From IMG/VR virus record IMGVR_UViG_3300009964_000006: 53,905 bases of DNA; one strand, 5' to 3'. The stretch comes from a virus. The position numbers and the translations under genes are program-made. Within the stretch, counting starts at the first letter, position 1; each line of letters opens with the position of its first letter. Below, piece by piece: positions 1-17,609 of this stretch. Below the pieces are notes generated by a model, which saw nothing but the letters and a program-made list of their open reading frames with translations, was not told where the DNA came from and ran no database searches.

Positions 1-1982
1 CCTTTTTCATCAAGCCAAACACCAAAGCCGTTAATGGTGCGTTCAAATCCCAATGTCTGGATAGCCTTCAGCAAAGCATTGCCCTCGCCATCAATACCAG
101 CCCCATTGTTAAATGCAACACCCTTTATAAACGTAATCAGTTCCTGTGCTGTGTCGGGGGTTAATTTGCTAAGAAAGCGTATATCGGTATAATTCTTTAT
201 AAGTTCAGTTACTTGTGCCGCATTTAAGCCTCCACCACCACTAAAATTGCCCGATAGGATATTGTTTACATCTTCCTTTAATTGCGAGATAGTGCCTTTT
301 ACGGCTTGGTTTCCAACAACTATCTCTTGTATAATCGGATAATCCAGCTTTGTAATGAGCTTTAAAATGCGTGTATTTAATTCATATCCGTTGCCATCGT
401 TGAATATAACCTTTTGTCCTATATACAAATTAGGATTGCTCTTTGCAAACTCTACAGCGTTAGAATGAAAGGAGTAGTTATTGTTGTCCTGTGTACGTCT
501 GTTTATCTCCTTTATGGTGCGTGCCGCCAATTCTTCTTGTGCTGCTTTTGTTTCATTCTCTCCCATAACTATATTGAAGAGAACAACAATATTGCAAGTG
601 TAATCGGGCTTATTCTTACCACGTGGATAAAGACCCTCGTTTTCGTTGGTAGGAATAATAATATCTCCGCTTTGATATTTCACAATCTCATACTCTCCTG
701 AAGATGCTGAAACATCTTTGTGGTATCGCAGTTCAAACCCATCTTGTCCGTTTGGCTGACCTACTAAACTTTGTGTAAGCGCATCGTATTTCCCATCAGT
801 AGTATGAGTATTGACCTTAAAGAAACCTTTTAAAGTGTGTCCTTGCAGTACTTGCTTCTTTACGTCTAACTCGTAGCTATACCAATAGTGAGTAACTATA
901 TTTCCTTGCTCGTCTTTATCGTTAGTGATGTTTACGAGTGTCTTTGTATTGTCTTTTATAGTAGTGGGATAGGCGAGGCTTATATACCAAATAGTATACG
1001 TCTTCTCCTTTCCATTGCTATCCAATTCTACCTTGTTAGTTTGGCTGTTCTTTAATTTCTTTACCACCTGACGGACATTATACACGTATAAATCAATATG
1101 CGGATAAACATCATCAAAGGAGAGAGCCAGCGTTTGCTTAATAGCCTTAGATGCTTCAAACTTTGCTTTAGTGGTTATCTTTCCATTCTCATCAATATAT
1201 ATATGTCCATCGGGGTAAATGGTTTTATCCAATCCTATTCTTGCAAGCGTAGCATAGTTACCCGTTCCAACCAATGCTTTACGAGACATATTCTTTGTTG
1301 AGCCTTGCGGATAGAAACAGTTATAGTAATTCTCTTTACTCTCACTGATAGACGGATATTGTATGTTGTCGTGCGCTTTTAGAATTGGCACATTCTCTCC
1401 CAGATTAATACTTACTTGTCCAAAGTATAATGTTCTATGCTTCCACGATAAATGCCACTCACACGGATTATTCTTACAGCCTTGAGCAATAGAAGAGAGT
1501 ACCGAAAGTATATCATTCGCTGACACAGAGAATGAAACAGACGCATCAACGTTACCGCAAAGAGTATAAGTAAATTTATTCTCCGTTATTCCTAACGCTT
1601 CATTGATTGCATCGCAAGCCTTTTGCAAAGCATTTGTCGTTAATCCATCGTACGACCATTCCTGTTGCTTAATAGGATTCTTATCCGCATCTGTGGTATC
1701 ATAGAGAAATGGCACACGGCTAAGCCACATCAAAGGGTGCTGAAACTCTGGAGTGTATTTGAAAGCCGTTGCATCTTCATTTGGCGTATACGGGTCTAAT
1801 AAGCGATATTTAATACCATCATCAAAAGGAACTATATACGCACCTACTGGCAAAGTAATCTTAATATCACTTTGCCACGATAAACGTATTAAGTTAGATT
1901 TACCTAACTCTTCCTCGTGTTCGGCACTCTCTGTCAAAGATGCTTCAAATATTTTACTATCGTTGATGTCGTATATTACCAT
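1..1982 (-). CDS. Large tail-tip/baseplate (Tal-like) protein, N-terminal 660 codons; continues across the circular junction into 52680..53778 (about 1026 aa in total)
   Basis: My translation of the minus strand from ATG 1982 (MVIYDINDSKIFEASLTESAEHEEELGKSN...) stays open to position 1. It is in frame with track ORF 52680..53852 through the 127-bp overlap ((1982-74) is divisible by 3). It is missing from the ORF track because no stop lies at this window edge. It follows the TMP and Dit-like genes. Confidence 0.85.
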   Translation of the reverse strand, partial: MVIYDINDSKIFEASLTESAEHEEELGKSNLIRLSWQSDIKITLPVGAYIVPFDDGIKYRLLDPYTPNEDATAFKYTPEFQHPLMWLSRVPFLYDTTDADKNPIKQQEWSYDGLTTNALQKACDAINEALGITENKFTYTLCGNVDASVSFSVSANDILSVLSSIAQGCKNNPCEWHLSWKHRTLYFGQVSINLGENVPILKAHDNIQYPSISESKENYYNCFYPQGSTKNMSRKALVGTGNYATLARIGLDKTIYPDGHIYIDENGKITTKAKFEASKAIKQTLALSFDDVYPHIDLYVYNVRQVVKKLKNSQTNKVELDSNGKEKTYTIWYISLAYPTTIKDNTKTLVNITNDKDEQGNIVTHYWYSYELDVKKQVLQGHTLKGFFKVNTHTTDGKYDALTQSLVGQPNGQDGFELRYHKDVSASSGEYEIVKYQSGDIIIPTNENEGLYPRGKNKPDYTCNIVVLFNIVMGENETKAAQEELAARTIKEINRRTQDNNNYSFHSNAVEFAKSNPNLYIGQKVIFNDGNGYELNTRILKLITKLDYPIIQEIVVGNQAVKGTISQLKEDVNNILSGNFSGGGGLNAAQVTELIKNYTDIRFLSKLTPDTAQELITFIKGVAFNNGAGIDGEGNALLKAIQTLGFERTINGFGVWLDEK

Positions 1983-2884: not shown

Positions 2885-3211
2885 TTATGCTATTCTAACT
2901 AAGTTCGCTTTTTTGAAACAACGCCATTCGTCTTTTTCAGTGTCAAAGTACACTTGACAAGTGTCTGCTGTCTTTTTCTCGCCCTTTGTTGTAGGTATTC
3001 TATCACTCATAAGAGTGCCGTAGGCTTCACGCAAGCTGCCGTCTACCTTTTGAAAGTAGAACTTTACAACTCGCTTGCTAAGGGCTGCTTTTAGCTTAAT
3101 GTTTGCCCAAGCGCACTTTAACGCTTCTGATAATGTATAACCATTCTTGCGTACGAACTGCCAAGCAAGACTCATTACCTCTCTCATCGTGTTCTTTAAT
3201 GTTGTACTCAT
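2885..3211 (-). CDS. DUF2693-like phage protein
   Basis: 108-aa ORF. The C-terminal pattern FQKVDGSLREAYGTL...YFDTEKDEWRCFKKANL matches my memory of the Bacteroides phage-associated DUF2693 family. Confidence 0.5.
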   Translation of the reverse strand: MSTTLKNTMREVMSLAWQFVRKNGYTLSEALKCAWANIKLKAALSKRVVKFYFQKVDGSLREAYGTLMSDRIPTTKGEKKTADTCQVYFDTEKDEWRCFKKANLVRIA

Positions 3212-3258
3212 AATCTTTATAGTTTAATAGTTTTATACTTTGTTTCTTAATCACAATG

Positions 3259-3266
3259 CAAAGATA
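3259..3266 (-). promoter_or_regulatory. Bacteroidota -7 promoter box (TATCTTTG on the minus strand) for the 3211..2082 genes
   Basis: Plus-strand CAAAGATA is the reverse complement of the TAnnTTTG consensus, 48 nt upstream of ATG 3211. Confidence 0.5.
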
Positions 3267-3275
3267 TACATATTT

Positions 3276-3346
3276 GCGAACACTTACAAGAGGATGACAA
3301 CAAAATATTCGCATATTAGCGAACTTTAACAAATAAAGGTGTTCGC
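3276..3346. promoter_or_regulatory. Candidate operator set: GCGAACAC (3276..3283), GCGAAC (3319..3324), GTGTTCGC (3339..3346)
   Basis: 8-bp inverted repeat plus a third half-site in the divergent intergenic region upstream of the XRE regulator gene. Confidence 0.35.
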
Positions 3347-3410
3347 ATTTATGTATATTAAATGTTGTTAAGATTTGAAACGTATTTTTCGCACCTATGT
3401 ATATATTTTA

Positions 3411-3418
3411 TATATTTG
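3411..3418 (+). promoter_or_regulatory. Bacteroidota -7 promoter box TATATTTG upstream of the XRE gene
   Basis: Exact TAnnTTTG match only 4 nt before ATG 3423. This would give a near-leaderless mRNA, so the assignment is tentative. Confidence 0.35.
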
Positions 3419-3422
3419 TACT

Positions 3423-3695
3423 ATGAAACAAGATATAAGAATAAAAGAAATTTGCAAAGAGAAAGGTATCACATTAGAAGATTTAGCTAAAAGGTTAGGT
3501 ATTCTTCGCACATCGCTTTCTCAAGCGTTATCACGTAATAGCTTCAGCACGGATAAACTAAGTGATATTGCCAATGCTCTCAATGTCCCTATGTGGCAGT
3601 TGTTCGCATCGCCAGAGGAGGTGCAAAAGGAAAACAACAACATTGTTTGTCCCCATTGTGGGAATCCTATCAAAGTAACCATAATAAAGGAATGA
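3423..3695 (+). CDS. XRE-family helix-turn-helix regulator with a C-terminal CxxC tail
   Basis: MKQDIRIKEICKEKGITLEDLAKRLGILRTSLSQALSRN is a classic HTH_3 pattern. The C-terminus carries CPHCG. The stop overlaps the next ATG (ATGA at 3692..3695). Confidence 0.75.
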   Translation: MKQDIRIKEICKEKGITLEDLAKRLGILRTSLSQALSRNSFSTDKLSDIANALNVPMWQLFASPEEVQKENNNIVCPHCGNPIKVTIIKE

Positions 3696-5152
3696 AGTTT
3701 AATCACTACACATGGGACTTGTATAAACAAACCGATGTCGGCAAGAAAGCTATTAGTTTATTTGAAAACGCTGCCCATGATATATCTATATATGAACTTG
3801 TTTCCAAATATAATCCCATGGAGGCAAGGTTTTCAGATAAAGACAGTATGGAAGATTGTTGTGAACTTCTATGGGAACTTGCAATCAAGAAGATGCTATT
3901 GCCAACCAATATAGATGATGCACGAAATCTATACGAGCAAATAATAGATGGAGCGATATTGTTTGATGATGGAGAACCTTTTATAGAAAAAGCGGACTAT
4001 AAAACATATCTCATGGCTAATATGGATATATCTTTCATGTTGTTTTTCAAGGCTCCAGAGTATTTCTTTCCTAATATATTCCGATACCATTTCTTTGACC
4101 TTATAAAAGTATTTGATATATTTGACATAGAATTGCCATTACCACCTAAAAAGAGTAATTATAGGGCACGGTGTATGTATTATTGGGAACTATGCGAGAT
4201 ACTATATTCTTTTCGTAAAGAAAATGGACTATCTCCGTATGAGCTATGCGCTATGCTTTATGACTTTGGTCAAGGGCTTACAAAGAATATTCCAACAGAA
4301 TTGCCGAAACCATCTAAGGCTTGGTTTATTGGCGGTAAGATTATGCCAATAGAAGATTTGGATTTTACATTTTGGCAAGCTAATGAGGATACTATGCGAG
4401 GAGATATTCTCATACACTACGAAACCTCTCCTATATGTGCAATAACATGTATGTGGATAGCCCAAATAGATGGTGTTATAGACCCGTTCTTTTATTACTA
4501 TGCTAACACATACATAGGAAGTAGAATAAAGCTACCACATGTAACTTTGCAGGAATTAAAGAACGATGAATACTTTTCTTCTCATCCACTTGTCAGGAAA
4601 AACTTTCAAGGAGTAAATGGATGGGAAATAAGTAATAGGGATTATCAAGAGTTTTTGCGAATAATACAGACAAAAAAGTACGATACAAGTAAATTACCAG
4701 TCTTATATGCACCTAAAATAGCTTGTACAAATATAAAATTAGAGAAAGATGTAGAAGAACATTTATTAATACCTTTACTTGATAGTATGGGTATGACAGA
4801 CTACATGCGACAAGTTCCATTACGGGCTGGATGCGGTGAAAGAATATATCCTGATTTTGCGGTGCATTGTACAAAAACAGATAATGGCTACATTGCCAAA
4901 GTACTTATAGAAGCAAAACTTTCCATGCGCAACAAAAAAGAAGTGTATGCAGCATTTCAACAAGCTAATTCTTACGCACATTTGTTAGAAGCACCTATTA
5001 TAATTCTCTGTGATAAGGAAATGCTTCTTGTTTATACAAATGAAAATGGATTTAATAGGAATAGATACAAGAGATTCTTTTGGGAGGATATGGAAAATCC
5101 AGATAGTTTTAACGAACTAAGACAAATAATTAAACTGAAATCTCAAATGTAA
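3692..5152 (+). CDS. 486-aa protein with a C-terminal PD-(D/E)xK nuclease module (HSDR_N/Mrr-like) and a possible central PUA/EVE-like module; candidate defence nuclease
   Basis: The ATG at 3692 is translationally coupled to the XRE gene. Motif YPDFAV...(x17)...LIEAK...QQANSYA lies at about 4847..4960. The central segment WFIGGK...RGDILIHYETSPICAITCMWIAQ resembles an EVE/ASCH-type beta-barrel (weak, by eye). Confidence 0.65.
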   Translation: MKFNHYTWDLYKQTDVGKKAISLFENAAHDISIYELVSKYNPMEARFSDKDSMEDCCELLWELAIKKMLLPTNIDDARNLYEQIIDGAILFDDGEPFIEKADYKTYLMANMDISFMLFFKAPEYFFPNIFRYHFFDLIKVFDIFDIELPLPPKKSNYRARCMYYWELCEILYSFRKENGLSPYELCAMLYDFGQGLTKNIPTELPKPSKAWFIGGKIMPIEDLDFTFWQANEDTMRGDILIHYETSPICAITCMWIAQIDGVIDPFFYYYANTYIGSRIKLPHVTLQELKNDEYFSSHPLVRKNFQGVNGWEISNRDYQEFLRIIQTKKYDTSKLPVLYAPKIACTNIKLEKDVEEHLLIPLLDSMGMTDYMRQVPLRAGCGERIYPDFAVHCTKTDNGYIAKVLIEAKLSMRNKKEVYAAFQQANSYAHLLEAPIIILCDKEMLLVYTNENGFNRNRYKRFFWEDMENPDSFNELRQIIKLKSQM

Positions 5153-5366
5153 TCAAATGTTAAAAATCAACATCTTTATAAAGTAGACATTGATATCAGC
5201 ATTAACATCAACATTAACACCTTCCACTTTAATAAATATATTATATAATAAATATAATAATTAATAATTATACATTATAATTTACATTCAAAATACATTT
5301 TTGAATGCTATCTATCTCTTTTAAAACATATTTTTCATTTTTCTTGCCTTTGTCAATGATTATGTT

Positions 5367-5374
5367 TACTTTTG
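5367..5374 (+). promoter_or_regulatory. Bacteroidota -7 promoter box TACTTTTG
   Basis: TAnnTTTG match 30 nt upstream of ATG 5405, after a 250-nt AT-rich spacer. Confidence 0.5.
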
Positions 5375-5404
5375 CAGGAAACAATAATTAAAAACGATAA
5401 AATT

Positions 5405-5956
5405 ATGAAAAAGTATTTTATTGCATTGTTCGTCTTACTTGTATCTATACCATCTTTGTGTCAGGATTATACAGAGTTTATGGGTATAAGTATGAATAAT
5501 AATCGTTTTCCCTTTGTAAAAACACTGGAAAGGTTGGGATTTTTTCTTGACAATCTTGATATTTCTGAACCTAACATAACGGCTGTTATATATAGAGGTA
5601 AATATTTAGGGTTAAATAGTAGTGTTTTTATAAGGGATAATACTGCAAAAAACAAAGTCGAATATATATCCGTTTCAATAGATGTCAAAGCAAACGATAC
5701 AATATCATCAAGACGGAATTATATTAAGGCGTATGAGTTCCTATCAAACAAGTATGATTGGGTAGATGCGCGCTTTTCTAAAGAAATAGGAGAGCCTTTC
5801 TTTGCGTATCAATTAAAGATGTTGTTCGATGATAGAATATTATTGATGTATGTTAAGAATATAAATGAGTTTAATGGAGACGTGAAATATATTCCTACGA
5901 TTATTTTTCGTCCCTTACCGCTTGGAATATCAAGAAGCAAAGAAGATTGTAAATAA
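5405..5956 (+). CDS. Secreted protein or lipoprotein (accessory gene)
   Basis: MKKYFIALFVLLVSIPSLCQ is a signal peptide with a lipobox-like SLC. It has its own promoter box and terminator, and its orientation is opposite to the flanking tail genes. Confidence 0.7.
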   Translation: MKKYFIALFVLLVSIPSLCQDYTEFMGISMNNNRFPFVKTLERLGFFLDNLDISEPNITAVIYRGKYLGLNSSVFIRDNTAKNKVEYISVSIDVKANDTISSRRNYIKAYEFLSNKYDWVDARFSKEIGEPFFAYQLKMLFDDRILLMYVKNINEFNGDVKYIPTIIFRPLPLGISRSKEDCK

Positions 5957-5957
5957 A

Positions 5958-5986
5958 GGGTAGCCGTTAAGCTACCCTATTTTTAT
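5958..5986. terminator. Bidirectional rho-independent terminator
   Basis: Stem GGGTAGC/GCTACCC (5958..5964 / 5971..5977), followed by a T-run on the plus strand and preceded by an A-run. Confidence 0.7.
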
Positions 5987-6399
5987 ATTCTATTTGTCGG
6001 GTTCGGTTCTATGAAAGCAAGTCCGAGTTTTGCAAAGGTTCGCTCCGTGTTCCTTGCAAATGTGCAACTTTTCCCCGTGTATTTCAGATGATACACATCG
6101 GGGCTATCATCGGGAACTTGTATAGATACATCGCCTTTGCGCAATTCTTCTACAAATGCCCTATTTTTTGTGTTGAAGTCGCTTGTATCGCTCCCCTCCA
6201 TAGTGAAATTAAGCGTTAAGTTTCTTTCATTTACTTTAGGTATAACATTAGCATACTGCACGCCATCTTTTAGTCGGTCGTTATTGGTTATATATTCTTT
6301 CAGCGGATAATATCCATTGATGGTGTCCAAAAAGCTATCTCCCATGCGAACGCCCCACGTCCTTAATGCATCTTTTCCGTTTATCAATAAATCTGCCAT
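5983..6399 (-). CDS. Small distal tail protein (Dit-like)
   Basis: 138-aa ORF directly after the tape measure gene (3-nt gap). N-terminus MADLLINGKDALRTWGV is typical of Dit-type proteins. Called from position and motif. Confidence 0.55.
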   Translation of the reverse strand: MADLLINGKDALRTWGVRMGDSFLDTINGYYPLKEYITNNDRLKDGVQYANVIPKVNERNLTLNFTMEGSDTSDFNTKNRAFVEELRKGDVSIQVPDDSPDVYHLKYTGKSCTFARNTERTFAKLGLAFIEPNPTNRI

Positions 6400-6401
6400 A
6401 A

Positions 6402-7966
6402 TTACATATCTTTAATTTTCCTTTTAATGTCTGAAACATCATTACTCATTACTTTTATAAACTTATTCATCGAAGTAGTATCATCGTGAATGCCTTGCAG
6501 TTCCAAATAAGAATTGGCAAGTATCGTCCTCGTTTCGTCAGCGATAGACTTCTGGTCGAAAGATGACAACTGTATCACTTTCATTGATACATCTAAGGAG
6601 CTTAATTTAGATGACAAAATATCTTTTATTTGGTCTCTCGATATATTCCCTGCCGTTGTGAGTGCGATAATGTTAGTTGCCTGCTCATAGGTAATAGACG
6701 AAACTCCGTTTGCTGTGGCTTTCTGTGCGGCATTTTCATCTGAATAGCCCATATAAGATGCGAGGTTGTCTGTTTTCTTTTTAAGTTCCTCCATCTTTTT
6801 AGAATATTCGGACTTGTAAGCCTCATAATCCGACTGCGACATATCGCCATCAGATAGTTTCTTTGCCCATTTGTTCTGAAAATCTTTTAACCACTTGTCA
6901 AAATCATCGTTTAATACACTTCTGTTTACCAAAGACTTAAACAACATCTTTGCAAAATTGTTACTCCAGTCCTCTGCATCAGCATTCATATCCATTAGGG
7001 TATCCAAAAAAGAACTTCTAAGACTGTCGAACGATGTCTGTGTGAGATTGTTCTTTATTTGTTCGGTGAGTTTCTCTGTCTTTCCTGCCTGCTCTACTAC
7101 TGCGTCCCAATATTCTTTCTTATCATACTTACCTACTTCGGTGAGATATTTCCACAAGTTAGGAGCAAAATCTCTTATCGCTTTGAGCTGTTCAGGGGAT
7201 AGACTATAAATGGAACTAAGTCCCGTTATATTTGCGCTGTCCACCCCTGCTGCAGCAAAAGCACGTTGAGCATCTTCATTATAAGACGCTATCTTGCTGT
7301 CGCTTGCGTATGAGTTGTTTGAATGATGTGCGGAATGATAACCCATTTGCTTTTTGAGAATCTCCATACTATTGGCATTTATCTCTTTTTGTGCTTTGAG
7401 TGCCGTTTCGTATGCATTGACAGCCTTATTTCCTGCCGAGTTTCCTATTCTTTCAGAAAGGCTATCTATCCGTTTTCCTAACTCTTCATTAGACTTTGTC
7501 AGCCTTTCGGTTGTCCTTGCGACTTCCTTTTCGTTGCCGCCACCGATGCCAAGCATAGAACCAAAAGACTTAATGGCTGAAATTCCTTTGAGAGCTGCAC
7601 CGATATAATTGCCACTTGCAAAGTCTCCTGCTGCTCCTGCCGCACTGTTGAACGCATCGAGACCTTTGGAAACCTTATCCCCAGCCTTACCAAGACCGAT
7701 TGAGCCGAGTAGGTCGGGAAGTTGGTCTATGCCCTTGTCTTCAATGAACTCTTGCTTGCCATAAAACCAATTAGCAATCTTCTGTGCTGGCTTCTCCTTT
7801 GCTCCGTCTTCTGCCTGCTTCGCTTTGTTCGTTGCCGTTATGGTATTCTTCCTTGCTTCGGCAAGTTTAGCTTCAGCAACAGCCAATTTTTGAAGTATGG
7901 GAGACATAGATTTGAACTTCTCATCTGTAAGGTCAATTTTACCATTTAGCGAAGATGTGGAAATTT
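6402..7966 (-). pseudogene. Tape measure protein, C-terminal fragment (518 codons), separated from its N-terminal part by an IS
   Basis: Track ORF 6402..7907 extends in frame upstream (TSSLNGKIDLTDEKFKS) to the IS junction. It is coiled-coil and Gly-rich. Confidence 0.85.
7959..7966. repeat. Target-site duplication GGAAATTT (left copy)
   Basis: Identical 8-mer at 9088..9095, directly abutting both IS termini. Confidence 0.9.
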
Positions 7967-9087
7967 GGCTTAATGGTCAAATGTACTCCTGAAAGGGGGC
8001 AAAAATGCTCTCTTTTTCATTTAATGGTCAAATGTACTCCTATAATAGTTGAACTCCCTAGTGTTTATCGGGGTTGTAAGCCCCTAATATGTTTCCAATA
8101 AGCAGTTCTCGCTTCTCTTTCGAAAGTCCACGATGAAGACGCAATCTCATCTTCAATACAGAGTTAAGAGATTCAATAGCATTGTTAGTGCGTGGAACTT
8201 GATCGGCAGGGAAATTCTCAAAGGTAAATAGTGCATTTAGATTGCGTTTTAAACTATAAAAAGCACTTCTCATTCTTCTATGAGTGAAGTGACATTTGCC
8301 ATCTTCACTATAAGACTTCTCTTGCAAAAAATATTTCCACTTTTGCTCCCATTTTTCAAGAGATGTCTCAAAGTCTAGACGACTGGATTGTGTAAGTTGA
8401 TGCGCCAATGCCTTGAGTTCTTTGGCCGCAGGTAAGCGAGGATTAGTGGTGAGCAAATGTCTTATTCGCTGAAGCTGATGAAACTGACAATACTGATAAG
8501 GTATTTCAGGAAATGCTTCCTTAATACCTGATAATGCGTCACTTACAATGGCTCTGATTGTAAATCCTTGATCTTGGAGACAGGAAATTCCAGCTTGATA
8601 ATCAGAAATTCTCTCCTTACCACGTAAGAAGCGATAATGCAAGACTTTGTGTGTTGTTGCATTCATAAAAATGACTACTCCAAAGTTTCGCCCCCAATAG
8701 GTGGCATCCATTTGTAGCGTTATAGCAATGGGATGAATTCTGCAAGAAACATCCTGATTTTGGGGTACGTTTTTGAGATATCGTTGTAGGGTAGAAACTG
8801 AAATACCATATTTTTGAGCTGTTTCAAGCAATGTATGGCGCCCTTGTAAATAGAACTCAACAATGGCTGCCTTATTAGGCTTTTCACGACCACTAAAATA
8901 GCATTGACAACTCTTGCAATACCAATACGAGGAACCACGTTTAACTCCTTTGCGGATTACATCATGAGAACCGCATTTCTGGCACTTTTTTTATGATGAT
9001 TTTCCATTATAGCATTATAAACACCTGCAAAGGTATGAAAAAGAGAGCATTTTGCCCCCTTTCAGGAGTACATTTGACCATTAAGCC
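7967..9087 (-). mobile_element. Insertion sequence, 1121 bp, IS1595-family-like (ISPna2-group-like)
   Basis: Terminal inverted repeats of about 53 bp (7967..8020 vs 9035..9087, one 1-nt indel) with termini starting GGCTTAATGG. An extra subterminal copy of TTAATGGTCAAATGTACTCC lies at 8021..8040. 8-bp TSD and a single transposase ORF with an N-terminal zinc ribbon. Confidence 0.9.
8058..9007 (-). CDS. IS transposase (zinc ribbon + DDE-type core); needs a -1 shift or one extra A in the A7 tract at 8986..8992
   Basis: ATG 9007 gives MENHHKK, then A7G. The -1 frame continues KCQKCGSHDVIRKGVKRGSSYWYCKSCQCYF...HTLLETAQKYGISVSTLQRYL...DATYWGRNFGVVIFM... to the stop at 8058. The track ORF 8058..8831 begins at an internal TTG. 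Confidence 0.75.
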
Positions 9088-9095
9088 GGAAATTT
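9088..9095. repeat. Target-site duplication GGAAATTT (right copy)
   Basis: See 7959..7966. Confidence 0.9.
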
Positions 9096-12000
9096 CATCT
9101 AATGACATATTAATGCCAGCCGAAGACAATTGTTTCTGTGCTTCCTGCTTTACTTCGTTAAGCCTCAATGCTTCGGTGGCTTCCTGGTTTCGGGCAACAT
9201 TTAGCCTTTCTTGTGCATCTGCCGCTTCTTTAAGCCTTCTATTATGTTCTCTTGTCTTTTCTCCTATGAAGTTCCAAATACCTTGTTGTTTGCCGAGTTC
9301 TTCGTCGATAGCATTTATTTTTTCAGAAACGACCTGCATTTGGTCGATAGGAAGATTTCCACTGCTTAAAAGGTCCTGTAATTGGTCTCTTAATCCCAGC
9401 AAGTAGTCTTTCGTATGACCCTGCAAATCAGAGAAAATGCCATTCCAATCAATACTTGTGTTTATATTGTCTTCTTTGGCTTTTTCTATCTCCTTATCAC
9501 GCTGCATCTGTAAAGTGGCTTTTTCTCCAACAGATTTAGCGTTTTGCATTTTCTCTTCGTACTCTTTTGTAATAGCAAGTTTCTTTTCCTCGAATGAACC
9601 GTACTCTTTAAGATAACTATTTAATGCATCTACTTCTTCCTGCTGCCATTTTTTGCGCTGTGCGGTATATTCTTTATCCGCCTTACTTATCAACGATTGT
9701 AAGTAACTTTCCTGGTCTGTGGTGAGCTTTATCTCCTTGTAACTCTTTTTACCCTCTTCGGTGTCAGAATAAACTTTTGTTTTGTCAGTGTTTTTATTAT
9801 CCCAATCTCTCTTATTTTCGTCATATTTTGCCTTACGTAGGTCATCAGCTTCCTTGCGTACTTGTCGTATTGTCTTATCATATTGCAGCTGGTAAGCGGC
9901 ACGTTCTTTCTCTCCTGCATCAGTGATTGATGCAATACGTTCTTCTTCTTTTGCTTCAGCTGCTTTTATAGCATCTTCTTCTTCCTTATTTTTTCTTGTT
10001 ACATTAGATTCAAATACATACTCTCTTTTTTTTGCTGCTTCCTCTTCTGCTTTGTTGGCTTCTGTGGCTCGTTTCTTCGCTTCTCTTTCAGCCTGCTTCT
10101 GCTTTCTTTTAGCCTCTGCCTCTGCTTTCTTTTTTTCTTTTTGAGATGTTTTAATCTCTTGCTGTGTAGTACTGCCACTTAGGGATTTGTACGCTTGTTC
10201 CGCATCTTCGTATTTTTTCTTTGCCGTTGCAACATCAGACACCGAACCTCTTTTTTTCGCTTTCTCGTATTCAGCCTTAGCTTCTGCTGCTTTTTTTCTT
10301 GCATCTTTAACCGCCTTAGTCCATTTAATATTATTTTCTTTTTTTGTCGGTTTTATTCCATAAGCTATTTCATTCTTCTCTTCTTTGGAGATGCCATTCA
10401 TAGCGGCAAATTGGTCCAGTGCTTCATCTGCTGATACCTGCGTTTGCCTCATATAATTGGCATCAGAGATACCACTTGTAGAAAAAAACGAACTATGTAT
10501 GGGTCTTATCATACTGCGAACTGTAGTCTTTTTCCCATTGAAGATTATCCGTTGGTCAAGTCCACTCCCTGTTGCAGCATATTGGTTTACAAATCTCATC
10601 AACAGATTAGCTGTTTGTTGCCCATAAGCTCTAGCCAAAGCACCCCAAAGTTCTCCTCTTCTTTTTTGTATATCATCTTGCGCTGCCGCTGTGTTCTTGT
10701 CGTAGAATTGCTTTAACTGTCGTGCGGCTACACTCTTGCGAATTGCAGCTGTCAGTCTGTCGTATGAGGACGTCAATGTACCTGTACGGTCAATCTCGGC
10801 TGCAAGTCTACTGTCATATTGCCCATATTGTTCAATAATAGCATCTTTCGCTGCCTTCCATTGCTTAGTACCTTTCTTTGCCTGTTCTAATTCTGCTCTT
10901 AAGCCATTAAGCTTGTTTATTTCAATTTCAGCTGACCTTGCCACATCTCTATTAGCCTCGTCTAATCTGTCTTGTGCTGCTGAAGTGGCATCAGCCCTCT
11001 TTGAAACTTCCCATACTGCCATTCCAAATGCAGCGATGGCTGCCGCTGCAAGAACATAAGGATTAACAAGCAATGTAGCATTTAAAGATGCTACTTGTTT
11101 TTGTAATATACCCGTAACTACACTTAAAGATGTCGTTCCTGCTATTGATGCTGCACGTGAGATTACCATTGCCTTTTCGAGTGCGATATTCAAGATTAAC
11201 CCTGTGCGATACACTCCGTATGTAAGTATTAGACCTTCGAGTATCTTTCCTATTGTTTCATAGTTTTCTACGAGGAAAGTACCTGCCTGCACGGCTTTCA
11301 TTACGACACCTTCACCTTTCTTTCCTATCTCATTGAACATATTATCAAAGCTCTCCTGCAACATTGAAATCTGCCCGTTGAGCGTCTTTGCGCCCTCTGA
11401 TGACATACCAAAGAACTTACCTCCTGCCGATGTAGCAGATATAAAGGCATCCTGCACCATCTTTGAAGTGATAGCACCTTTCGACATCTCGTTTTTGAGT
11501 TCACCGATAGATTTACCCGTCTTGCGAGCGATTTCCTCAAGCGGGTTGAACCCAGCATTGACCATTTGCATGAGGTCCTGTCCCATCAACTTTCCTGCAC
11601 TACTCATCTGTGAGAAAGCAAGTGCAAGAGAGTTGAATTTACCAGTATCGCCCATAGAAATGTCGCCTATAGCCTTTAGATAGTCTATTGACTTTTCCGC
11701 CTCTATTCCAAAGGAAGTCATCATCTGTACCGCACCGACCATATCCTTTGTATTAAGCGGAGAAGCAAGAGCATACTCTTTAATTTGTCCCATTAAGTTA
11801 TCAAGTCGTTGCTGACTACCACCTAATAAGACCTTAAGAGAAGTCTCCATACTCTCAAACTCACCTCGTACGGAGATTATATGGCTTGCAAGTTCCTTTA
11901 GCCCCATACCGCCTATCACCATGCCGCTAATAGACTTTAATTTGCTTGTCAGCAAATTCATCGTATCTGCAGTTCCTCCGCCCTCTTCTCTAAGTAAAGC

Positions 12001-12492
12001 ATATTCATCACGGAGTCTTTTTACTGATAAACGTGCAGTAGCTTGTTCTTGGGTAAGGTCAAATAAAGCGTACTTCTGCTCTGCAAGTGCATCTTTCGCT
12101 TCTTTCAGCTTTGTAGCTATTGGAGAAATAGAACGCTCATATTTTCCCATTGAGCGATATTGTTCTGTAAGTGTCCTAATCTCTTCTTTGGTGTCTGCGA
12201 TAATCTTCTTTTGCTTTATTATCTCTTCTGCAAAATGATTTACACTTTGCGATGCGTCAAAAATCTTCTTTTTGAAGTCTCCCTCGATAACAGCGGATGC
12301 CTGTGCGATTCTACCCGTTACGCTGTTTAACTCTTTAGAAGTTGTCTGTAGTTTATCGTTGAGATTATTAAAGGAAGTAGGATTCTGAATAGCATCAGTA
12401 TTCTTTATTTCCTGCTTTAACTTATTAATCTCATCTCTTAATTTTTGGACTTTCTCCCAATCTGCTTGTATCTCGAATTTTAACTTTGCCAT
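9088..12492 (-). pseudogene. Tape measure protein, N-terminal fragment (1135 native codons)
   Basis: Track ORF 9007..12492. Its last 26 codons (GLMVKCTPERGQNALFFIPLQVFIML) are read from the IS end. Long coiled-coil, Lys/Glu-rich, with a hydrophobic central segment; lies downstream of the chaperone genes. Confidence 0.85.
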
Positions 12493-12494
12493 AC

Positions 12495-12752
12495 CTATTT
12501 ATTTCGTCTTCTGTTTGCGAGTTCCTTTCCACTTATTTTCCTTACCACATCTCCCACTGCTTCGTGTTGCTTGTCTCGCTGCATAACGACAAGATTTCGG
12601 TATGGAATTTGATTAACCACTTCATCGTATGTTAGATGCAAGCTATCTATAAACGATGCTATTTGCCCTAAAAGGGTCTTATTCCCGACTATTTCGGTGT
12701 TGCTGCCAGTAGGCTTGCGTTCTTCGTCAAACTGACAGCTTTCAAGAAAGGG
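12495..12752 (-). CDS. -1 frameshift extension of the tail assembly chaperone (gpT-like part of a G/GT pair)
   Basis: Slippery heptamer C_CCT_TTC (plus-strand GAAAGGG 12746..12752) lies in the zero frame of the chaperone. The -1 frame is open from there (LESCQFDEERKPTGSNTEIVGNKTLLGQIASFIDSL...RRRNK) to TAG 12495..12497, 2 nt before the TMP ATG. Confidence 0.65.
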   Translation of the reverse strand, partial: PFLESCQFDEERKPTGSNTEIVGNKTLLGQIASFIDSLHLTYDEVVNQIPYRNLVVMQRDKQHEAVGDVVRKISGKELANRRRNK

Positions 12753-13075
12753 TCTATCCCTATCATATCAAATACAGATAAAAGTGCATCTATAACCTCT
12801 GCCATAGTACCTTCAGAGAGTTCCTCTGAAATACTTAAGTCTCCTTTAATAAACCAAGAGAGCGCACGTGAATAGGCTTCTGCATCTTTACCCGATAATA
12901 TCATATCTTTCAACGTCCCATCTTCCTTAAATTCTATATCACTCAAATTTAAAATAGCCCCAGCGATTCGTTTTATAGTGGGAGACGGAACAGGGTATGC
13001 CTTGCCATTTACATACACAATGGCATAATCATTTCCAGTTATTGCACCTGATACTAATTTACTTGCTCTACTCAT
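12689..13075 (-). CDS. Tail assembly chaperone (gpG-like)
   Basis: 128-aa acidic ORF (ATG 13075, MSRASKLVSG...) between the major tail and TMP genes. The track start at 13117 is an upstream alternative start. Confidence 0.7.
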   Translation of the reverse strand: MSRASKLVSGAITGNDYAIVYVNGKAYPVPSPTIKRIAGAILNLSDIEFKEDGTLKDMILSGKDAEAYSRALSWFIKGDLSISEELSEGTMAEVIDALLSVFDMIGIDPFLKAVSLTKNASLLAATPK

Positions 13076-13149
13076 AAATGAAAAATAAAAAAAGGGCGGA
13101 GGTGGTCTTTTTGCCACGTTCCACCCCGATGTTATCCTGAAACCTTACC

Positions 13150-13725
13150 CTATGCCAAAGCCTTAACCTCTGACTCGTCAAAGTTATACTCTGATGATAC
13201 GCCATCAACAATAGGAACCTGAACAAGACCTTTGACTGCAATAGCGATAGCCTTGTCGGTGTTTGCCTCACGTGCTACAATCTGACAGTTAGGGAAGATG
13301 AACCATACATCATCTTCAGTCAGACAGAATAGAGCCTTTTTGATGACAACCTTGTCAGTAGCTCGCTTCCAACCTACAATGTCATCTTTGTCAGCACCTG
13401 CACCGCCTTTCTTGATGACTTCACCACCCATAAGAGCAGCTTTGGCAGCGTAGTCATACTGACCGATTGAGAACTGAGGGGTAATCTCTCCTTGAGTGGT
13501 GTCATAGCGGTATGCTTGACCCGTGAGCTGGTTCTTGTATGGAGTAACGGAAGCCTCGCTCTCTTCAATGTTCCATGTTTCGCCATGCACGTTCAGCACC
13601 TCATTCTTAGCTGTCTTAGCAGCCTTGATGATTATACTTGCACTTGCTGCGGTAAGGTCATTCTTGATTACGGAAATGTCAGCATAAAAAATCTTCTTAA
13701 TGCCGACAGCTGAAATTTTTCCCAT
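13150..13725 (-). CDS. Major tail protein
   Basis: 191-aa ORF immediately upstream of the chaperone/TMP genes, which is the conserved siphovirus order. Confidence 0.65.
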   Translation of the reverse strand: MGKISAVGIKKIFYADISVIKNDLTAASASIIIKAAKTAKNEVLNVHGETWNIEESEASVTPYKNQLTGQAYRYDTTQGEITPQFSIGQYDYAAKAALMGGEVIKKGGAGADKDDIVGWKRATDKVVIKKALFCLTEDDVWFIFPNCQIVAREANTDKAIAIAVKGLVQVPIVDGVSSEYNFDESEVKALA

Positions 13726-13727
13726 AT

Positions 13728-14120
13728 TTACGTTACGTTTAATGCGTTAAACAATATTCTACAATTAATAAAATGGCACTTCAAAGCAGTGTCCGCTTCA
13801 ATGTGGATAGTATCTATCTCATAGTTGTACCTTGTTCCATCAAACTCATCTGTTACGCTTTTGAAGAGTTTCTTTGCCTTTCGCTCCAACTCTTTTAATC
13901 GAAGTGTATTGGCAATTTTCACCCCCAAATCTGGAACACACAGATTGACTTCACAAAAACACTTCTCCCAATACTTGCTCGGGGTCTGTCCTTTCACGTG
14001 GATAGTAATGCGTTCATCTTTCAACTCCCCATTAATGGTTTTGCCGAAAGGAACTATCCCTATCCCAAACGCCTTGCAATCTCGGTAGAGAATATCTGCT
14101 ATGTCAGTAGTTACTATCAT
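13728..14120 (-). CDS. Tail terminator / tail completion protein (positional call)
   Basis: 130-aa ORF between the neck genes and the major tail gene, with tight coupling (4-nt overlap upstream). Confidence 0.5.
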   Translation of the reverse strand: MIVTTDIADILYRDCKAFGIGIVPFGKTINGELKDERITIHVKGQTPSKYWEKCFCEVNLCVPDLGVKIANTLRLKELERKAKKLFKSVTDEFDGTRYNYEIDTIHIEADTALKCHFINCRILFNALNVT

Positions 14121-14413
14121 TCAAACATTTCTTTTAGTTTCTTCTCTGCTCTCAATGCTGAACCGCTTAAAACTTCAAATCCCTTTGCCTCGACATAGGA
14201 GGCGTAAGGAGCGGTATTCTCTAATGTCAGTCCGTCTTTGTCTACATCGTATGTGTTGGACGTTCTCAAAATAAGAGTGTGGTCTTGGTATGTGCCGCTT
14301 TCCTCTGCATCCTTAACGGCTGCATCGCCCACGTCTATCATTCCTTTCTGAACCTCCCATTCTACATCATCAAAGAATTGGTCTACATCAGAGAAATCAC
14401 TATCTATAACCAT
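14117..14413 (-). CDS. HK97 gp10-like neck/tail-completion protein
   Basis: 98 aa. The motif APYASYVEAKGF resembles the YA.YVE.G signature of the HK97 gp10 family; position is consistent. Confidence 0.5.
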   Translation of the reverse strand: MVIDSDFSDVDQFFDDVEWEVQKGMIDVGDAAVKDAEESGTYQDHTLILRTSNTYDVDKDGLTLENTAPYASYVEAKGFEVLSGSALRAEKKLKEMFE

Positions 14414-14727
14414 AATTCAGAGTTATTGAAATAGTTAGCGTTCTTTACAATGTAAACCTTACCTTCTCCTCGTACGCTTTCCCCTTCAAGACATCTTACC
14501 TCTGTACCTGCTTTAATATCGACATTCATCTCACATACTACGTGGAAATTAGGTCTGTATACCTCACCATTAGGAGAGTTAAACTCTTTTGTTGTGTTAT
14601 CATCACAACGGCACTTACAGAGTGTTACCCACTCTTCACCTCCCGTGTTAGGGATTGGGTGTCCGTATTCGTCCTCTTGGAGTGGTGTAAACCTTTTAAC
14701 CTGCAATATGTGGGGTGCAAATATCAT
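14404..14727 (-). CDS. Head closure / head-tail adaptor protein (positional call)
   Basis: 107-aa ORF overlapping both neighbours in the connector block. Confidence 0.5.
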   Translation of the reverse strand: MIFAPHILQVKRFTPLQEDEYGHPIPNTGGEEWVTLCKCRCDDNTTKEFNSPNGEVYRPNFHVVCEMNVDIKAGTEVRCLEGESVRGEGKVYIVKNANYFNNSELWL

Positions 14728-15041
14728 AAGATGCGTATCTTCGGTTTATTGTCGTTGAGTTCGTCCTTCAATCCGTACTTCTTACAAAGGAGAGAATAAT
14801 AGTCCTTTACGCCTTGAGTGTTCCACGACATAGAGAAACCGCTCTCATTGATAGAAGTAGGACGAAGCAAAAGGGAAGGAATAAATCGGGCAATAGCAAC
14901 AGATATGGAATCTACGTTATCACTCATCACATCATCATCTATTGCTACTTTCGCATTGAGAGACATATCTAACAAGTCAGCCTCCGACACTTGTATGCCG
15001 AAAGACAGAAACTTGCTTGATATGTATTCCTTGACGTTCAT
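14724..15041 (-). CDS. Head-tail connector protein (positional call)
   Basis: 105-aa acidic ORF immediately after the major capsid gene (1-nt overlap). Confidence 0.5.
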   Translation of the reverse strand: MNVKEYISSKFLSFGIQVSEADLLDMSLNAKVAIDDDVMSDNVDSISVAIARFIPSLLLRPTSINESGFSMSWNTQGVKDYYSLLCKKYGLKDELNDNKPKIRIL

Positions 15042-16162
15042 TAGCCTAATTTGGAAAGGTCTGCGATAGCCATCTTATTAGGAATATTGATGTCGGGGAT
15101 AGCCTCGAAACCATACTCCATAAAACGCCCCTCGTCAGTTCGTTTAGATGAGATGAAACCTCTGCCATCTTCAATTTCTTGATAGGCACGACCATCATTA
15201 ACCTTGTCGGTCATTTCGTAAGGCTTCTTCCAACGCATAAAGCCAAGTTTGGTATTATCCGCCATCATAGGCAAGAATGAAATCTTGTCATCTGGGACGG
15301 CATTTACCATTTCACTCTCTGATGTTTGGATATACTCATCCTTGATACGGATTCGCCACGGCATGCCTACTGATTCGATAAGGCGGTTTACCATATCGGG
15401 AGTAACGATGCCACCTGTATTGAACTCCATATCACCAAACTTCATCGTAAATTTGCTTTGGAACTCCTTAGACGAAGCGATACGATTATTAAATGTGTGG
15501 CGATTCATTTCGGCTGTTGCGAAAAGCATACCCTTTGAACGTACCTTATCCACGAATTCCGTTTCAAGCCAAGAAAGGATGTTGTCCTTGTCGGCAGAAG
15601 CGGCTGTCTTTGTGTAGATAGGCAATTTTACTGTATCTACTGATACGCCCTGCTTGTTAGCCTTTCCATTTACCTTAGTAGAACCATTGAAACGCAAATC
15701 CCCCAACATAATATCAAGACGTTTCATAGGAGCAAGCATACATTGACGTACGTCATCAACCAAGAAGTTCACAATCTCGTCCATCTTAGCCGAAATAGCA
15801 TCGGTATTGCTCGACTGAATGCTCAACGTGTTATACTCCTCTATAAGCCATGTAAGACGTTCAAGACGAGTATTGTCCATTTGGTAAGCGTCGCCTAAGC
15901 AAGCCACCTCACCAAAACCACGTGTGAGAGCATGGCGTTTTCTGACAGGCTTCCCTGCATATCTGTCAATAACTGTACCTGCGATGACACCCACCTGTGT
16001 ACCCATATAAGTCTTGAAAGAACCATCGGGATTAGTTCTCTCATAAACAAGGTAGTCTTTCCAAAATACCTTGTCAAGTTCGCCCATAGTAACAATAGAA
16101 CGGTCTATCACCGCTTTGAGGAACTTAGGGCTATTCAGTAATGAATCTATTGTTAATAACAT
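15041..16162 (-). CDS. Major capsid protein (lambda gpE-like family by size and position)
   Basis: 373-aa ORF after the scaffold and decoration-like genes. Confidence 0.7.
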   Translation of the reverse strand: MLLTIDSLLNSPKFLKAVIDRSIVTMGELDKVFWKDYLVYERTNPDGSFKTYMGTQVGVIAGTVIDRYAGKPVRKRHALTRGFGEVACLGDAYQMDNTRLERLTWLIEEYNTLSIQSSNTDAISAKMDEIVNFLVDDVRQCMLAPMKRLDIMLGDLRFNGSTKVNGKANKQGVSVDTVKLPIYTKTAASADKDNILSWLETEFVDKVRSKGMLFATAEMNRHTFNNRIASSKEFQSKFTMKFGDMEFNTGGIVTPDMVNRLIESVGMPWRIRIKDEYIQTSESEMVNAVPDDKISFLPMMADNTKLGFMRWKKPYEMTDKVNDGRAYQEIEDGRGFISSKRTDEGRFMEYGFEAIPDINIPNKMAIADLSKLG

Positions 16163-16177
16163 ATATTCCTCTTTTTT

Positions 16178-16771
16178 TTAGATAAACATGAAACGTCCTG
16201 TGAGAGCCGCCTTATCTTCCTCTGTGAAAGGAATGTAAAGGTTGTCCTCAACGATTGAAAATGCACGACCAACCAATGCAACGGTATTCTCTTTTGCCAA
16301 GTTGCGCCAACCGAATGAAGCGAAGTTAGCTACATTCTTAGCCTTAGCGTCAGATGCACTCTTTGCCTCGGGAAGTACCTTACCAACTTCCAAATCAGCC
16401 TTTGTCGCTTCTTTGGTGGTAATTGTATCATAATCCTCATTAGAAGTGTCCACCGACTTTACAGTGATAACATTTGTCCCGTCAGAGAGTAACGTGCCCA
16501 CATTGATGAAGTCCGCAAAAGGACATTTAGCAATCTTGATGGTAGTCGCTCCTGTGGTAGCCTTTTCTACTACCTTGACACGAATGCACACTACCGCCTT
16601 GCGCTCTACCTTATCACGATAGATAGGCGTAAGTTCGGGCAACCATCCCTTATTAGGGAGATTACTCATGTCTAAGTCCATACCACCATCTGTGAGGCGA
16701 TATAGAGATTTCTCGTCGCAAACCTCCCTTTCGATAGGAGGCGTGGATTCAAACTTAATTCCTGCTGCCAT
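16178..16771 (-). CDS. Head decoration-like / capsid accessory protein
   Basis: 197-aa ORF between the scaffold and major capsid genes, the position of lambda gpD. Confidence 0.45.
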   Translation of the reverse strand: MAAGIKFESTPPIEREVCDEKSLYRLTDGGMDLDMSNLPNKGWLPELTPIYRDKVERKAVVCIRVKVVEKATTGATTIKIAKCPFADFINVGTLLSDGTNVITVKSVDTSNEDYDTITTKEATKADLEVGKVLPEAKSASDAKAKNVANFASFGWRNLAKENTVALVGRAFSIVEDNLYIPFTEEDKAALTGRFMFI

Positions 16772-16777
16772 AATGAT

Positions 16778-17437
16778 TTACTTTTTTTCGTTTTCTGTTT
16801 TGATAGCCTCGGTTCGCTTATTGACGCCATCCAAAAGACTATCCATATCGTCTTTGTGTTCGTGGTTTCCCTCTTCGGGAGACTTTGCGAACTGGAATCC
16901 ACCATTCTGCATCTCCTGCTTCACGTCCGTGAAGTACTGATTAAGGTCTACATCATCAGCGATTTGCTTTCCTTTATAGACATATTCAGGGATACCGAAT
17001 GATTTTGCCACTGCTGCAATCTGTTGGTTGCGAATGTTTGCCTTTTCTTTTGCGTCCATTGCAGCTAACTTCTCGCTCAATGTCTTGTTAGAGTCAATAA
17101 GACTTTGCGCCCACGCTGGCACTTGTTCCGTTGGATTTGATTGTGGAGTCGGTGTTGGTAGTGGGTCTTGTGGCTTTGGTTCCTCGATTGGCTTTCCGTC
17201 CTTGATGTTGTGCTTCTTCTCGTAGTTGGAAACTGCGGTTTTCTGCGCACCATCAGCCCGATAGTCGCCATAGCTTGTTAGTACGTCTTGAAAGGAGATA
17301 CCCTCAACGATAGAGTTTACCTTGCTCTCGTCCGTTACTCCTTCAGCTTTCTTGCTTGCAATGCGCTGAAGTGTGGCATCCTCAACCCCTTGAAATTTGG
17401 TTTTAAGTCCTGCCAAAATTTGTTCGTAAATGTTCAT
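16778..17437 (-). CDS. Scaffolding protein
   Basis: 219-aa charged protein with a Pro-rich linker (EEPKPQDPLPTPTPQSNPTEQ), downstream of the portal gene. Confidence 0.6.
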   Translation of the reverse strand: MNIYEQILAGLKTKFQGVEDATLQRIASKKAEGVTDESKVNSIVEGISFQDVLTSYGDYRADGAQKTAVSNYEKKHNIKDGKPIEEPKPQDPLPTPTPQSNPTEQVPAWAQSLIDSNKTLSEKLAAMDAKEKANIRNQQIAAVAKSFGIPEYVYKGKQIADDVDLNQYFTDVKQEMQNGGFQFAKSPEEGNHEHKDDMDSLLDGVNKRTEAIKTENEKK

Positions 17438-17474
17438 ACTTTATAAAGTGTTATCCTGAAACAATCTTTTGCAA

Positions 17475-17578: not shown

Positions 17579-17609
17579 GAAATAATACATAAACAGTTAT
17601 ATAATGAAG

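Follow-up and report, generated by a model that had tools for sequence, protein, structure and literature searches.

An apparently recent IS256-family insertion in the tape measure gene of a temperate siphophage, and a candidate slippage site at the start of its transposase gene

Introduction

What does it mean for a temperate phage when its genome is recovered as a closed circle with its tape measure gene in two pieces? The question is raised by IMG/VR virus record IMGVR_UViG_3300009964_000006, a stretch of 53,905 nucleotides (the window) in which a 1121-bp insertion sequence (IS) lies inside the minus-strand gene for the tail tape measure protein (TMP). Taken as a whole, the evidence makes it highly probable that an IS256-family element inserted recently, that the phage, predicted from the break to make no normal tail, kept the ability to excise, and that the transposase of the element depends on slippage for its expression. 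An earlier interpretation made from the letters of the window (the sequence-only reading) had already recognized the IS splitting the TMP gene, the recent date of the event, and the circle; what it got wrong was the IS family, which it gave as IS1595 instead of IS256.

An insertion sequence splits a single tape measure gene

Direct reading of the sequence places the IS at 7967..9087, with ends bounded by GGCTTAATGG... and ...CCATTAAGCC (Table 1). The arms of its terminal inverted repeats, 7967-8004 and 9050-9087, are 100% complementary over 38 nt, and the repeat extends to 54 nt at one end (7967-8020) and 53 nt at the other (9035-9087) if one 1-nt indel (A5 versus A4) is allowed for. Immediately outside each end, at 7959-7966 and 9088-9095, lies one copy of an 8-bp direct repeat, GGAAATTT; the two copies match perfectly, and the match cannot be extended on either side. 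For any one pair of sites, the expected frequency of perfect agreement between 8-nt flanks is about 1/65,000, and for this reason the match is not attributed to chance. The sequence-only reading, which had described a 1121-bp element with terminal inverted repeats of about 53 bp and a perfect 8-bp flanking repeat, was accurate on each of these points.

One end of the element is doubled. On the transposase-downstream side, there are two direct copies of the 21-nt motif TTAATGGTCAAATGTACTCCT situated 51 nt apart (at 7970 and 8021). The 51 nt between the two copies are absent from the 1071-bp single-ended variants L081 and L084, which have exactly the structure expected from a deletion between the two direct copies. 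The outer end is the one used by all copies that have intact target duplications. Neither this doubled end nor the frame change in the transposase described below appeared in the sequence-only reading.

The interrupted gene can be restored precisely. In silico deletion of 7967..9094 joins ...SLDEIS (residue 1135) to TSSLNGKIDLTDEKFKSMSPILQKL... and yields a single 1653-codon open reading frame (ORF) with no internal stop, in which the ORF at 9007..12492 reads in frame into TSSLNGKIDLTDEKFKS-MSPILQKL.... The insertion point is therefore between codons 1135 and 1136 of 1653. As sequenced, the truncated ORF continues for 26 further codons inside the IS (GLMVKCTPERGQNALFFIPLQVFIML) and stops at 9007. 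The identity of the gene, which the sequence-only reading had also taken to be the tape measure gene, is supported by several features. First, its N-terminal part matches Pfam TMP_3 with 97 bits. Second, it lies between a tail-chaperone-like gene upstream (phrog_13669) and a tail protein gene downstream (phrog_6305), within a block of terminase, portal, head, and tail genes. Third, it is one long ORF of 1653 to 1655 amino acids in relatives.

Phages with the empty site are found in nature. When the sequence predicted for that site was searched for by exact match, IMG/VR contig 3300006262_000289 was recovered, which is 95 to 96% identical to the window; the alignment ends at 7966 and picks up again at 9088, the two parts overlapping by 8 nt, and the TMP of the contig is one ORF of 1655 amino acids. 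A look-up of the major-tail-like protein of the window found four metagenome contigs in ENA (L118 to L121) that represent essentially the same phage, each with an uninterrupted TMP of 1653 amino acids. Two of them (L118 and L121) differ from the in silico-repaired TMP gene at 0 of 4962 nt, and the other two (L119 and L120) at 1 nt. On the other side of the insertion, 5946 nt are 100% identical in L118 and L121, and the alignments break exactly at 7966/9088, again with the 8-nt overlap. The repeat GGAAATTT is single-copy in the IS-free alleles examined (L001, L118, and L121). In more than 20 more distant IMG/VR relatives, the TMP is likewise one gene matching residues 1 to 1653. Thus, the 1653-codon protein obtained by removing the IS by hand corresponds to a natural IS-free allele at 100% nucleotide identity, and the relatives show the opposite of a TMP that is naturally made as two genes. 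Since the flanking gene carries no substitution relative to IS-free phage in other samples, the insertion appears to be very recent, as had been proposed. With both alleles public at 100% identity, a recent date can be given to the event and there is no doubt about its breakpoints.

An assembly artifact, in which a multi-copy host IS was threaded into a phage contig and no phage molecule carried it, was weighed against these data. The IS is indeed multi-copy in host genomes and breaks many contigs, and misjoins of this kind do occur around it, for example in the short metagenome contigs L124, L125, L129, and L130, which have mismatched flanks. However, a misjoin can neither make a perfect 8-bp target duplication nor leave a gene that is exactly in frame upon removal of the insert, and both junctions fall on one point of the IS-free allele. 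Moreover, a Logan contig (L122) of run SRR3657276 contains the 501-amino-acid ORF that arose through the insertion. This contig begins with 30 nt of the IS end, continues through AAATTTCC into the 3′ part of the TMP gene, and is 100% identical to window 7996..2958; in this independent assembly at k=31, the sequence crosses the duplication unbroken and includes 30 nt of the IS. A second contig from SRR3657276 is 100% identical to window 12711..19915. We consider a chimera very improbable. The left IS/TMP junction had no match in JGI metagenome contigs, and an exact look-up of the 1161-amino-acid TMP-IS fusion ORF found no record. Searches for the IS itself gave no megablast match among INPHARED phages or PLSDB plasmids, and neither its 38-nt nor its 21-nt end motif had an exact match in IMG/VR, where the IS is in no other catalogued viral contig. 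Because the end motif or the IS is absent from these three collections, the insertion is, in the data searched, private to this phage lineage.

Table 1. Coordinates of the insertion sequence, the interrupted gene, and the attachment region in the window
Feature	Position	Strand	Basis or remark
Terminal overlap, sign of a circular assembly path	1..127	.	Identical to 53779-53905
Tape measure gene, 3′ part, codons 1136-1653	6402..7958	-	First in-frame ATG at 7907, giving the 501-amino-acid ORF
Left copy of the 8-bp target-site duplication, GGAAATTT	7959..7966	.	Perfect match to right copy
Insertion sequence, 1121 bp, assigned to the IS256 family (zinc-binding variant, IS1249-like)	7967..9087	-	Transposase co-directional with the tape measure gene
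Outer terminal inverted repeat, 54 nt, transposase-downstream end	7967..8020	.	Inverted copy of the other end, including 30 nt subterminal; target duplication abuts
Inner second copy of the 21-nt end motif TTAATGGTCAAATGTACTCCT (doubled end)	8021..8041	.	Repeat analysis and variant comparison
Transposase coding region, 316-amino-acid conceptual product	8058..9007	-	ATG at 9007, zero frame through the A tract, then -1 frame; stop at 8058-8060
A7 slippage tract (candidate; T7 on the + strand), context T-AAAAAAA-G	8986..8992	-	Sequence reading and copy comparison
TAATG overlap of the stop of the truncated TMP-IS fusion ORF and the ATG of the transposase leader	9005..9009	-	Direct sequence reading
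Sigma-70-like promoter match	9014..9041	-	10/12 to consensus; Bacteroidota promoters differ
Terminal inverted repeat, transposase-proximal end, 53 nt, begins GGCTTAATGG	9035..9087	.	Sequence reading
Right copy of the 8-bp target-site duplication, GGAAATTT	9088..9095	.	Perfect match to left copy
Tape measure gene, 5′ part, codons 1-1135	9088..12492	-	TMP_3 at residues 204-390
Tyrosine integrase, likely true start at ATG 27516 (399 amino acids)	26317..27516	-	Longer GTG-started ORF from 27714 crosses the attP tRNA fragment
attP core, 3′ 44-45 nt of a tRNA-His gene	27654..27698	-	Complete tRNA-His here in related prophage contigs L135, L136, L140, L143, and L148

The element is assigned to the zinc-binding variant of the IS256 family

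Profile searches with the 316-residue conceptual transposase point to one family. The protein matches NCBIfam NF048019 ("IS256 family transposase, variant Zn-binding type") with 306.7 bits against a cutoff of 150, over residues 11 to 308, and Pfam PF00872 (Transposase_mut) with 26.9 bits against a cutoff of 21. Its score against the IS1249 model NF033544 was 138.1 bits, below the cutoff of 300, and for this reason the element is best regarded as a relative of IS1249 but not a member. The segment around the second catalytic aspartate and the C-x2-H motif aligns to PDB 6xg8, a "Mutator family transposase," with an E value of 9e-6. In an alignment of relatives down to 35% identity, D101, D157, C174-x2-H177, and E279 (the last within a T-N-N-x-x-E motif) are invariant, and these predicted catalytic residues make up the Mutator-type signature D...D...C-x2-H...E. 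They follow a C-x2-C...C-x2-C zinc finger and a helix-turn-helix in the protein. The inverted repeats and the 8- to 9-bp target-site duplication expected of the IS256 family are both found here (53/54 nt and 8 bp).

The sequence-only reading had labeled the element IS1595-like, a label that these results do not sustain. An N-terminal C-x2-C...C-x2-C zinc finger and an 8-bp duplication are indeed IS1595 traits, and the NCBIfam model for the "IS1/IS1595 family N-terminal zinc-binding domain" gives a match of 23.6 bits, which is below its cutoff of 28. But both traits also occur in the IS256 zinc variant and in IS1 and thus do not discriminate between the families, and it was probably the 8-bp duplication, which fits either, that misled the earlier reading. 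No Pfam or NCBIfam match to an IS1595/ISXO2-type DDE catalytic domain was found at E values up to 0.1. The profile of the IS256 zinc variant covers the whole protein, with IS1249 at 138 bits, and the catalytic region aligns to a solved transposase of the IS256 (Mutator) family with the signature described above. On these grounds, IS1595 was rejected, and we give it practically no chance of being the correct family. The element is thus best classified as an IS256-family IS, a zinc-finger variant related to IS1249.

The transposase gene changes frame at a conserved A7 tract

The transposase is not encoded in a single frame. Its sole ATG (9007) opens with ATG GAA AAT CAT CAT AAA AAA AGT... and meets a stop after 16 codons. 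The zinc-finger frame (KKCQKCGSHD...) is -1 relative to this ATG and starts right after a TAA formed by a T and the first two A's of the A7 tract. The trans-frame product predicted across the tract contains the peptide MENHHKKKCQKC.... Other starts were considered and rejected: there is no alternative start for the zinc-finger frame between the TAA and a TTG at 8831, and a GTG that overlaps the A tract is in the third frame and opens a short ORF only. Gene callers start at TTG 8831 and produce a truncated transposase of 257 amino acids. Upstream of the ATG, inside the inverted repeat, lies a sigma-70-like promoter match (TTTTCA-16-TATAAT, 10/12), which is a match to consensus only, given that Bacteroidota promoters differ.

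The same tract recurs in other copies of the IS. Of 14 close copies, 12 have A7G, as do another six copies of 1121 bp, and an in-frame A8G was found in none of the close copies examined (these 14 and the six). A search of 5.8 billion proteins returned no close full-length transposase; the nearest clusters in this collection, with 2024 and 426 members, all represent the 257-amino-acid truncated call. The layout, which consists of the ATG, 4 to 5 codons, T-A7-G, and then the -1 frame, is kept in lineages at 100 to 93%, 86 to 84% (L084 and L112), 69% (L113), and 49% (L133) protein identity. Other relatives depart from it in different ways. In a 56% relative (L131/L132), the transposase is in one frame with A6G. 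In a 51% relative (L115, Logan DRR582342), the tract before TGC is A8, so that the correction required is the opposite one (+1/-2), and a 52% relative (L116, Logan SRR32496767) has A6 followed by TGC and no clear start codon.

Ahead of the first possible in-frame start, the -1 frame has collected its substitutions preferentially at third codon positions. The counts at positions 3/1/2 were 25/10/8 for L113, 15/6/7 for L084, and 6/0/2 for L087, and all four zinc-finger cysteines are kept in the compared copies. This pattern shows the marks of purifying selection on the -1 frame. Because of the third-position bias and the conserved cysteines, the frame would have to be translated upstream of any start. 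What is found at the tract is thus what a recoding site is expected to display, namely, a frame change conserved across diverged copies together with selection in the downstream frame before any start.

Could the gene simply be broken, with A7 as a fixed frameshift and the copies either immobile or mobilized in trans by a rare A8G master? The frame is interrupted in every close copy, and the 56% relative has its transposase in a single frame with A6G. However, no A8G master was found among the close copies, no close full-length protein is present in the 5.8 billion, and freshly inserted copies with perfect duplications all have A7. Preservation of the layout down to 49% identity would not be expected from independent decay, nor would a dead frame show the third-position bias and intact cysteines that indicate translation upstream of any start. 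A broken gene is therefore unlikely. The conserved layout across lineages and the apparent purifying selection on the -1 frame argue that programmed slippage fits better than a pseudogene.

Several observations nevertheless count against programmed slippage or against a particular form of it. First, two copies have A6G; one of these is a fragment and the other carries extra amino acid changes. Second, A7 is a short tract for efficient transcriptional slippage, a point that also favors a broken gene. Third, a stimulatory RNA structure was not found, since the region downstream of the A tract folds no better than shuffled sequences (z = -0.02) and an alignment of seven IS copies contains no compensatory pair; a broken gene would again account for this. 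Finally, the canonical heptamer A_AAA_AAG is out of phase with the ATG frame, so that there is no obvious support for an efficient -1 ribosomal frameshift of the classical kind. As for the kind of slippage, the evidence leans toward transcriptional realignment as the most likely mechanism. This is because no downstream structure is supported, the heptamer is out of phase, and related tracts need different corrections. A good example of the latter is the A8 relative (L115), whose opposite correction could be tolerated by a heterogeneous transcript pool but not by a fixed -1 ribosomal shift.

On balance, we moderately favor the view that in this Bacteroidota subgroup of IS256, the transposase is made only via slippage at a conserved T-A7-G five codons after the start, most likely through transcriptional realignment, and that the site serves as a start-proximal throttle that yields no alternative functional protein. 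Since the tract is located ahead of every protein domain and the unshifted product is a 16-amino-acid peptide, the site could only throttle expression. No transposase would then be made unless RNA polymerase inserts an extra A, or the ribosome slips by -1, on T-A7-G, and this requirement would keep its expression low. No description of a start-proximal recoding throttle was found for the IS256 family.

The position of the IS in the phage may add a further layer. The IS is co-directional with the late operon, reading from outside is stopped in all three frames before or at the transposase ATG, and the TAATG overlap could couple late-operon translation to the transposase leader. If this is true, prophage induction could drive a burst of transposase translation, a possibility that belongs to the view favored above.

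The IS appears to be active in oral Prevotellaceae

Alloprevotella spp., Prevotella aurantiaca, Segatella salivae, and metagenome-assembled genomes of Prevotellaceae carry the 21-nt end motif, often at contig ends. Full copies in other genomes are 86 to 99% identical to that in the window, with copies at 94 to 99% in P. aurantiaca, S. salivae, and Alloprevotella, and 1121-bp copies with 100% identity are present in other metagenomes (L123 and L128). In L087 (AACTTTCA), L088 (TTCCTTTT), and L128 (TCTCTTTT), the 1121-bp element is bordered by perfect 8-bp duplications that differ from site to site, so that together with the window all 4 of 4 insertions in reliable contexts have an 8-bp duplication. 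The targets are AT rich with no obvious common motif. No duplication was found in the short metagenome contigs L124, L125, L129, and L130, which were left out of this count as probably chimeric across IS copies. As a point on the other side, a target duplication was looked for and not found in the single-ended copies L081 and L084. Overall, the IS appears to be active. From its presence in these genomes, the host of the phage is predicted to be an oral-type member of the Prevotellaceae; the distribution points to Prevotella, Segatella, or Alloprevotella and does not discriminate among them.

The phage is excised and predicted to be tail defective

The remaining genes of the window are those of a temperate phage, with terminase, portal, head, and tail genes, a CI-like S24 repressor, and a tyrosine integrase of the Bacteroidota type. 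The first 127 nt of the window (1..127) are identical to the last 127 nt (53779-53905), and the 3′ part of a tRNA-His gene lies beside the integrase gene, in agreement with the earlier statement that the contig closes as a circle with an intact phage attachment site (attP). Because only the 3′ part of tRNA-His is present, whereas related prophages have the full tRNA-His, the window is best read as the excised attP form of a temperate siphophage. The integrase probably starts at ATG 27516, since the longer GTG-started ORF runs across attP. No isolated phage similar at the nucleotide level was found, and close relatives come from human-associated metagenomes only.

These observations suggest the following course of events. 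An active 1121-bp IS that resided in the chromosome of an oral Prevotellaceae host would have transposed into the tape measure gene of a temperate siphophage carried by that host. Its insertion, a DDE reaction of the cut-or-copy-and-paste type in which the target is cleaved with an 8-bp stagger, would have produced the GGAAATTT duplication. The interrupted gene would then specify a 1135-amino-acid N-terminal fragment with a 26-amino-acid IS-encoded tail, and codons 1136 to 1653 could be translated at most as a separate 501-amino-acid piece from ATG 7907. The TMP measures the tail as a single uninterrupted ruler, and tail assembly is seeded from its C-terminal end (e.g., lambda gpH). For this reason, a protein that is no longer continuous and lacks its C-terminal part should be unable to build normal tails, and the predicted outcome is filled heads with no normal tails unless a wild-type copy supplies TMP in trans. 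A point on the other side is that the 501-amino-acid C-terminal fragment may be translated separately, which is conceivable. The IS-bearing phage would still be able to excise at the tRNA-His attP, circularize, replicate, and be packaged. The circular contig would be explained in this way, since a tail-defective prophage can still excise, circularize, and replicate.

Alternatively, the IS-bearing genome might still propagate as a phage, because wild-type TMP is supplied in trans, because two TMP fragments suffice, or because the IS excises precisely. In favor of this, the genome was assembled as a closed circle at a depth sufficient for the main path, nearly identical IS-free phages occur in the same kind of samples, and the extra 1129 bp amount to only about 2% of the genome. 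In addition, the coding strand of the IS was found to contain no terminator-like site; strong polarity is therefore not predicted, and the downstream tail genes may still be transcribed. On the other hand, the TMP is one continuous ORF in all relatives examined, and zero divergence gives no evidence of long-term persistence. The Logan contig of SRR3657276 shows no branch to the empty site, which is a weak argument because low-coverage branches are pruned. An excised, replicating, tail-less prophage explains the circular contig equally well. We consider continued propagation quite unlikely and retain the prediction of a tail-defective phage that can still excise.

Other features of the window

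Four regions outside the interrupted gene were also noted. First, on the opposite (+) strand after the tail protein gene, an ORF at 5372-5956 has a GC content of 0.28 and an N terminus resembling a signal peptide or lipoprotein. In the 95%-identical IMG/VR relative L001, a different 441-nt segment replaces window 5423-5950, and the ORF looks like an exchangeable moron. Second, a 519-amino-acid ORF at 3593-5152 (+ strand; phrog_37753, no Pfam match) lies with a helix-turn-helix repressor-like gene between the tail genes, on the strand opposite to them. Third, the region 49000-53000 has a GC content of 0.47 to 0.49, compared to about 0.38 to 0.43 elsewhere, and includes a 585-amino-acid ORF with a weak match to a "minor head protein" PHROG; it may be a module of different origin. 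Fourth, a phage-encoded tRNA-Gln (anticodon TTG) is found at 34236-34307 (+ strand), far from the attachment site.

Upstream of the TMP gene, at 12495-12691 on the minus strand, the -1 frame is open from the end of a 128/142-amino-acid gene to just before the TMP start. This is the layout expected for a G/GT-type tail assembly chaperone made via programmed -1 frameshifting; a slippery site was not identified.

Discussion

The event itself is a clean and, to judge from the identical flanks, very recent case of the well-known knockout of a phage gene by an IS, and its kind is ordinary. It is a textbook-quality example of host insertion sequences disabling resident prophages, and none of the findings alters a general concept. 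There are practical consequences for annotation, in that the two pieces of an interrupted TMP would be annotated as ORFs with no relation to each other, in a phage rated as complete, and the transposase is called everywhere as a truncated 257-amino-acid protein. The most interesting by-product, for recoding as well as for IS regulation, is the conserved start-proximal A7 site in an IS256 subgroup, a candidate site of slippage.

Comparison with known phages places the window among the temperate siphophages of Bacteroidota. The gene order (terminase, portal, head, tail, chaperone, TMP) is the same, as is the combination of a CI-like repressor with a tyrosine integrase that has the Bacteroidota-type arm-binding domain. 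By portal protein, the closest isolate is Bacteroides phage BS-TP2, at 57% identity, and the Porphyromonas gingivalis phages are at 32%. A parallel for the knockout is prophage PhiM247 of Lactobacillus crispatus M247, which has IS-interrupted genes and still excises but could not be induced (PMC10763512). In both cases, a host IS interrupts a prophage gene. Unlike PhiM247, the phage in the window has an exact empty-site allele at 100% identity, which dates the event as very recent, and the molecule was recovered in an excised circular form.

The IS256 family is usually described as having a single transposase ORF and a length of 1.2 to 1.5 kb (ISfinder/TnPedia figures). The element shares with the zinc variant of this family the D, D, C-x2-H, E signature, inverted repeats that start with GG, the 8-bp duplication, and the lack of passenger genes. 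It differs from the usual members in being shorter (1121 bp), in having long inverted repeats (53/54 nt) with one end doubled, and in having its transposase in two frames with a frame change needed at codon 7-8. The length and the two-frame transposase are departures in detail, not in catalytic type. The IS1249-like, zinc-binding variant of IS256 has Mutator-type DDE transposases, group p-MULT 1 (Guerillot et al. 2014, PMC3942029), and among Mutator-like elements the ISMich2 group is reported to have a conserved -1 frameshift (PMC3942029). A substantial number of IS elements use transcriptional slippage, and a 2016 review of recoding names IS1, IS3, IS5, and IS630 as families with frameshifting, with IS256 not listed (PMC5009743). 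The element resembles these four families and ISMich2 in having a slippery A tract between two frames that is kept across diverged copies, and the presumed role is the same, a low level of transposase. In IS1 and IS3, however, the shift fuses OrfA, a complete DNA-binding unit, to the catalytic OrfB, so that two functional products are made, whereas in the element described here it would occur five codons after the ATG, ahead of all domains.

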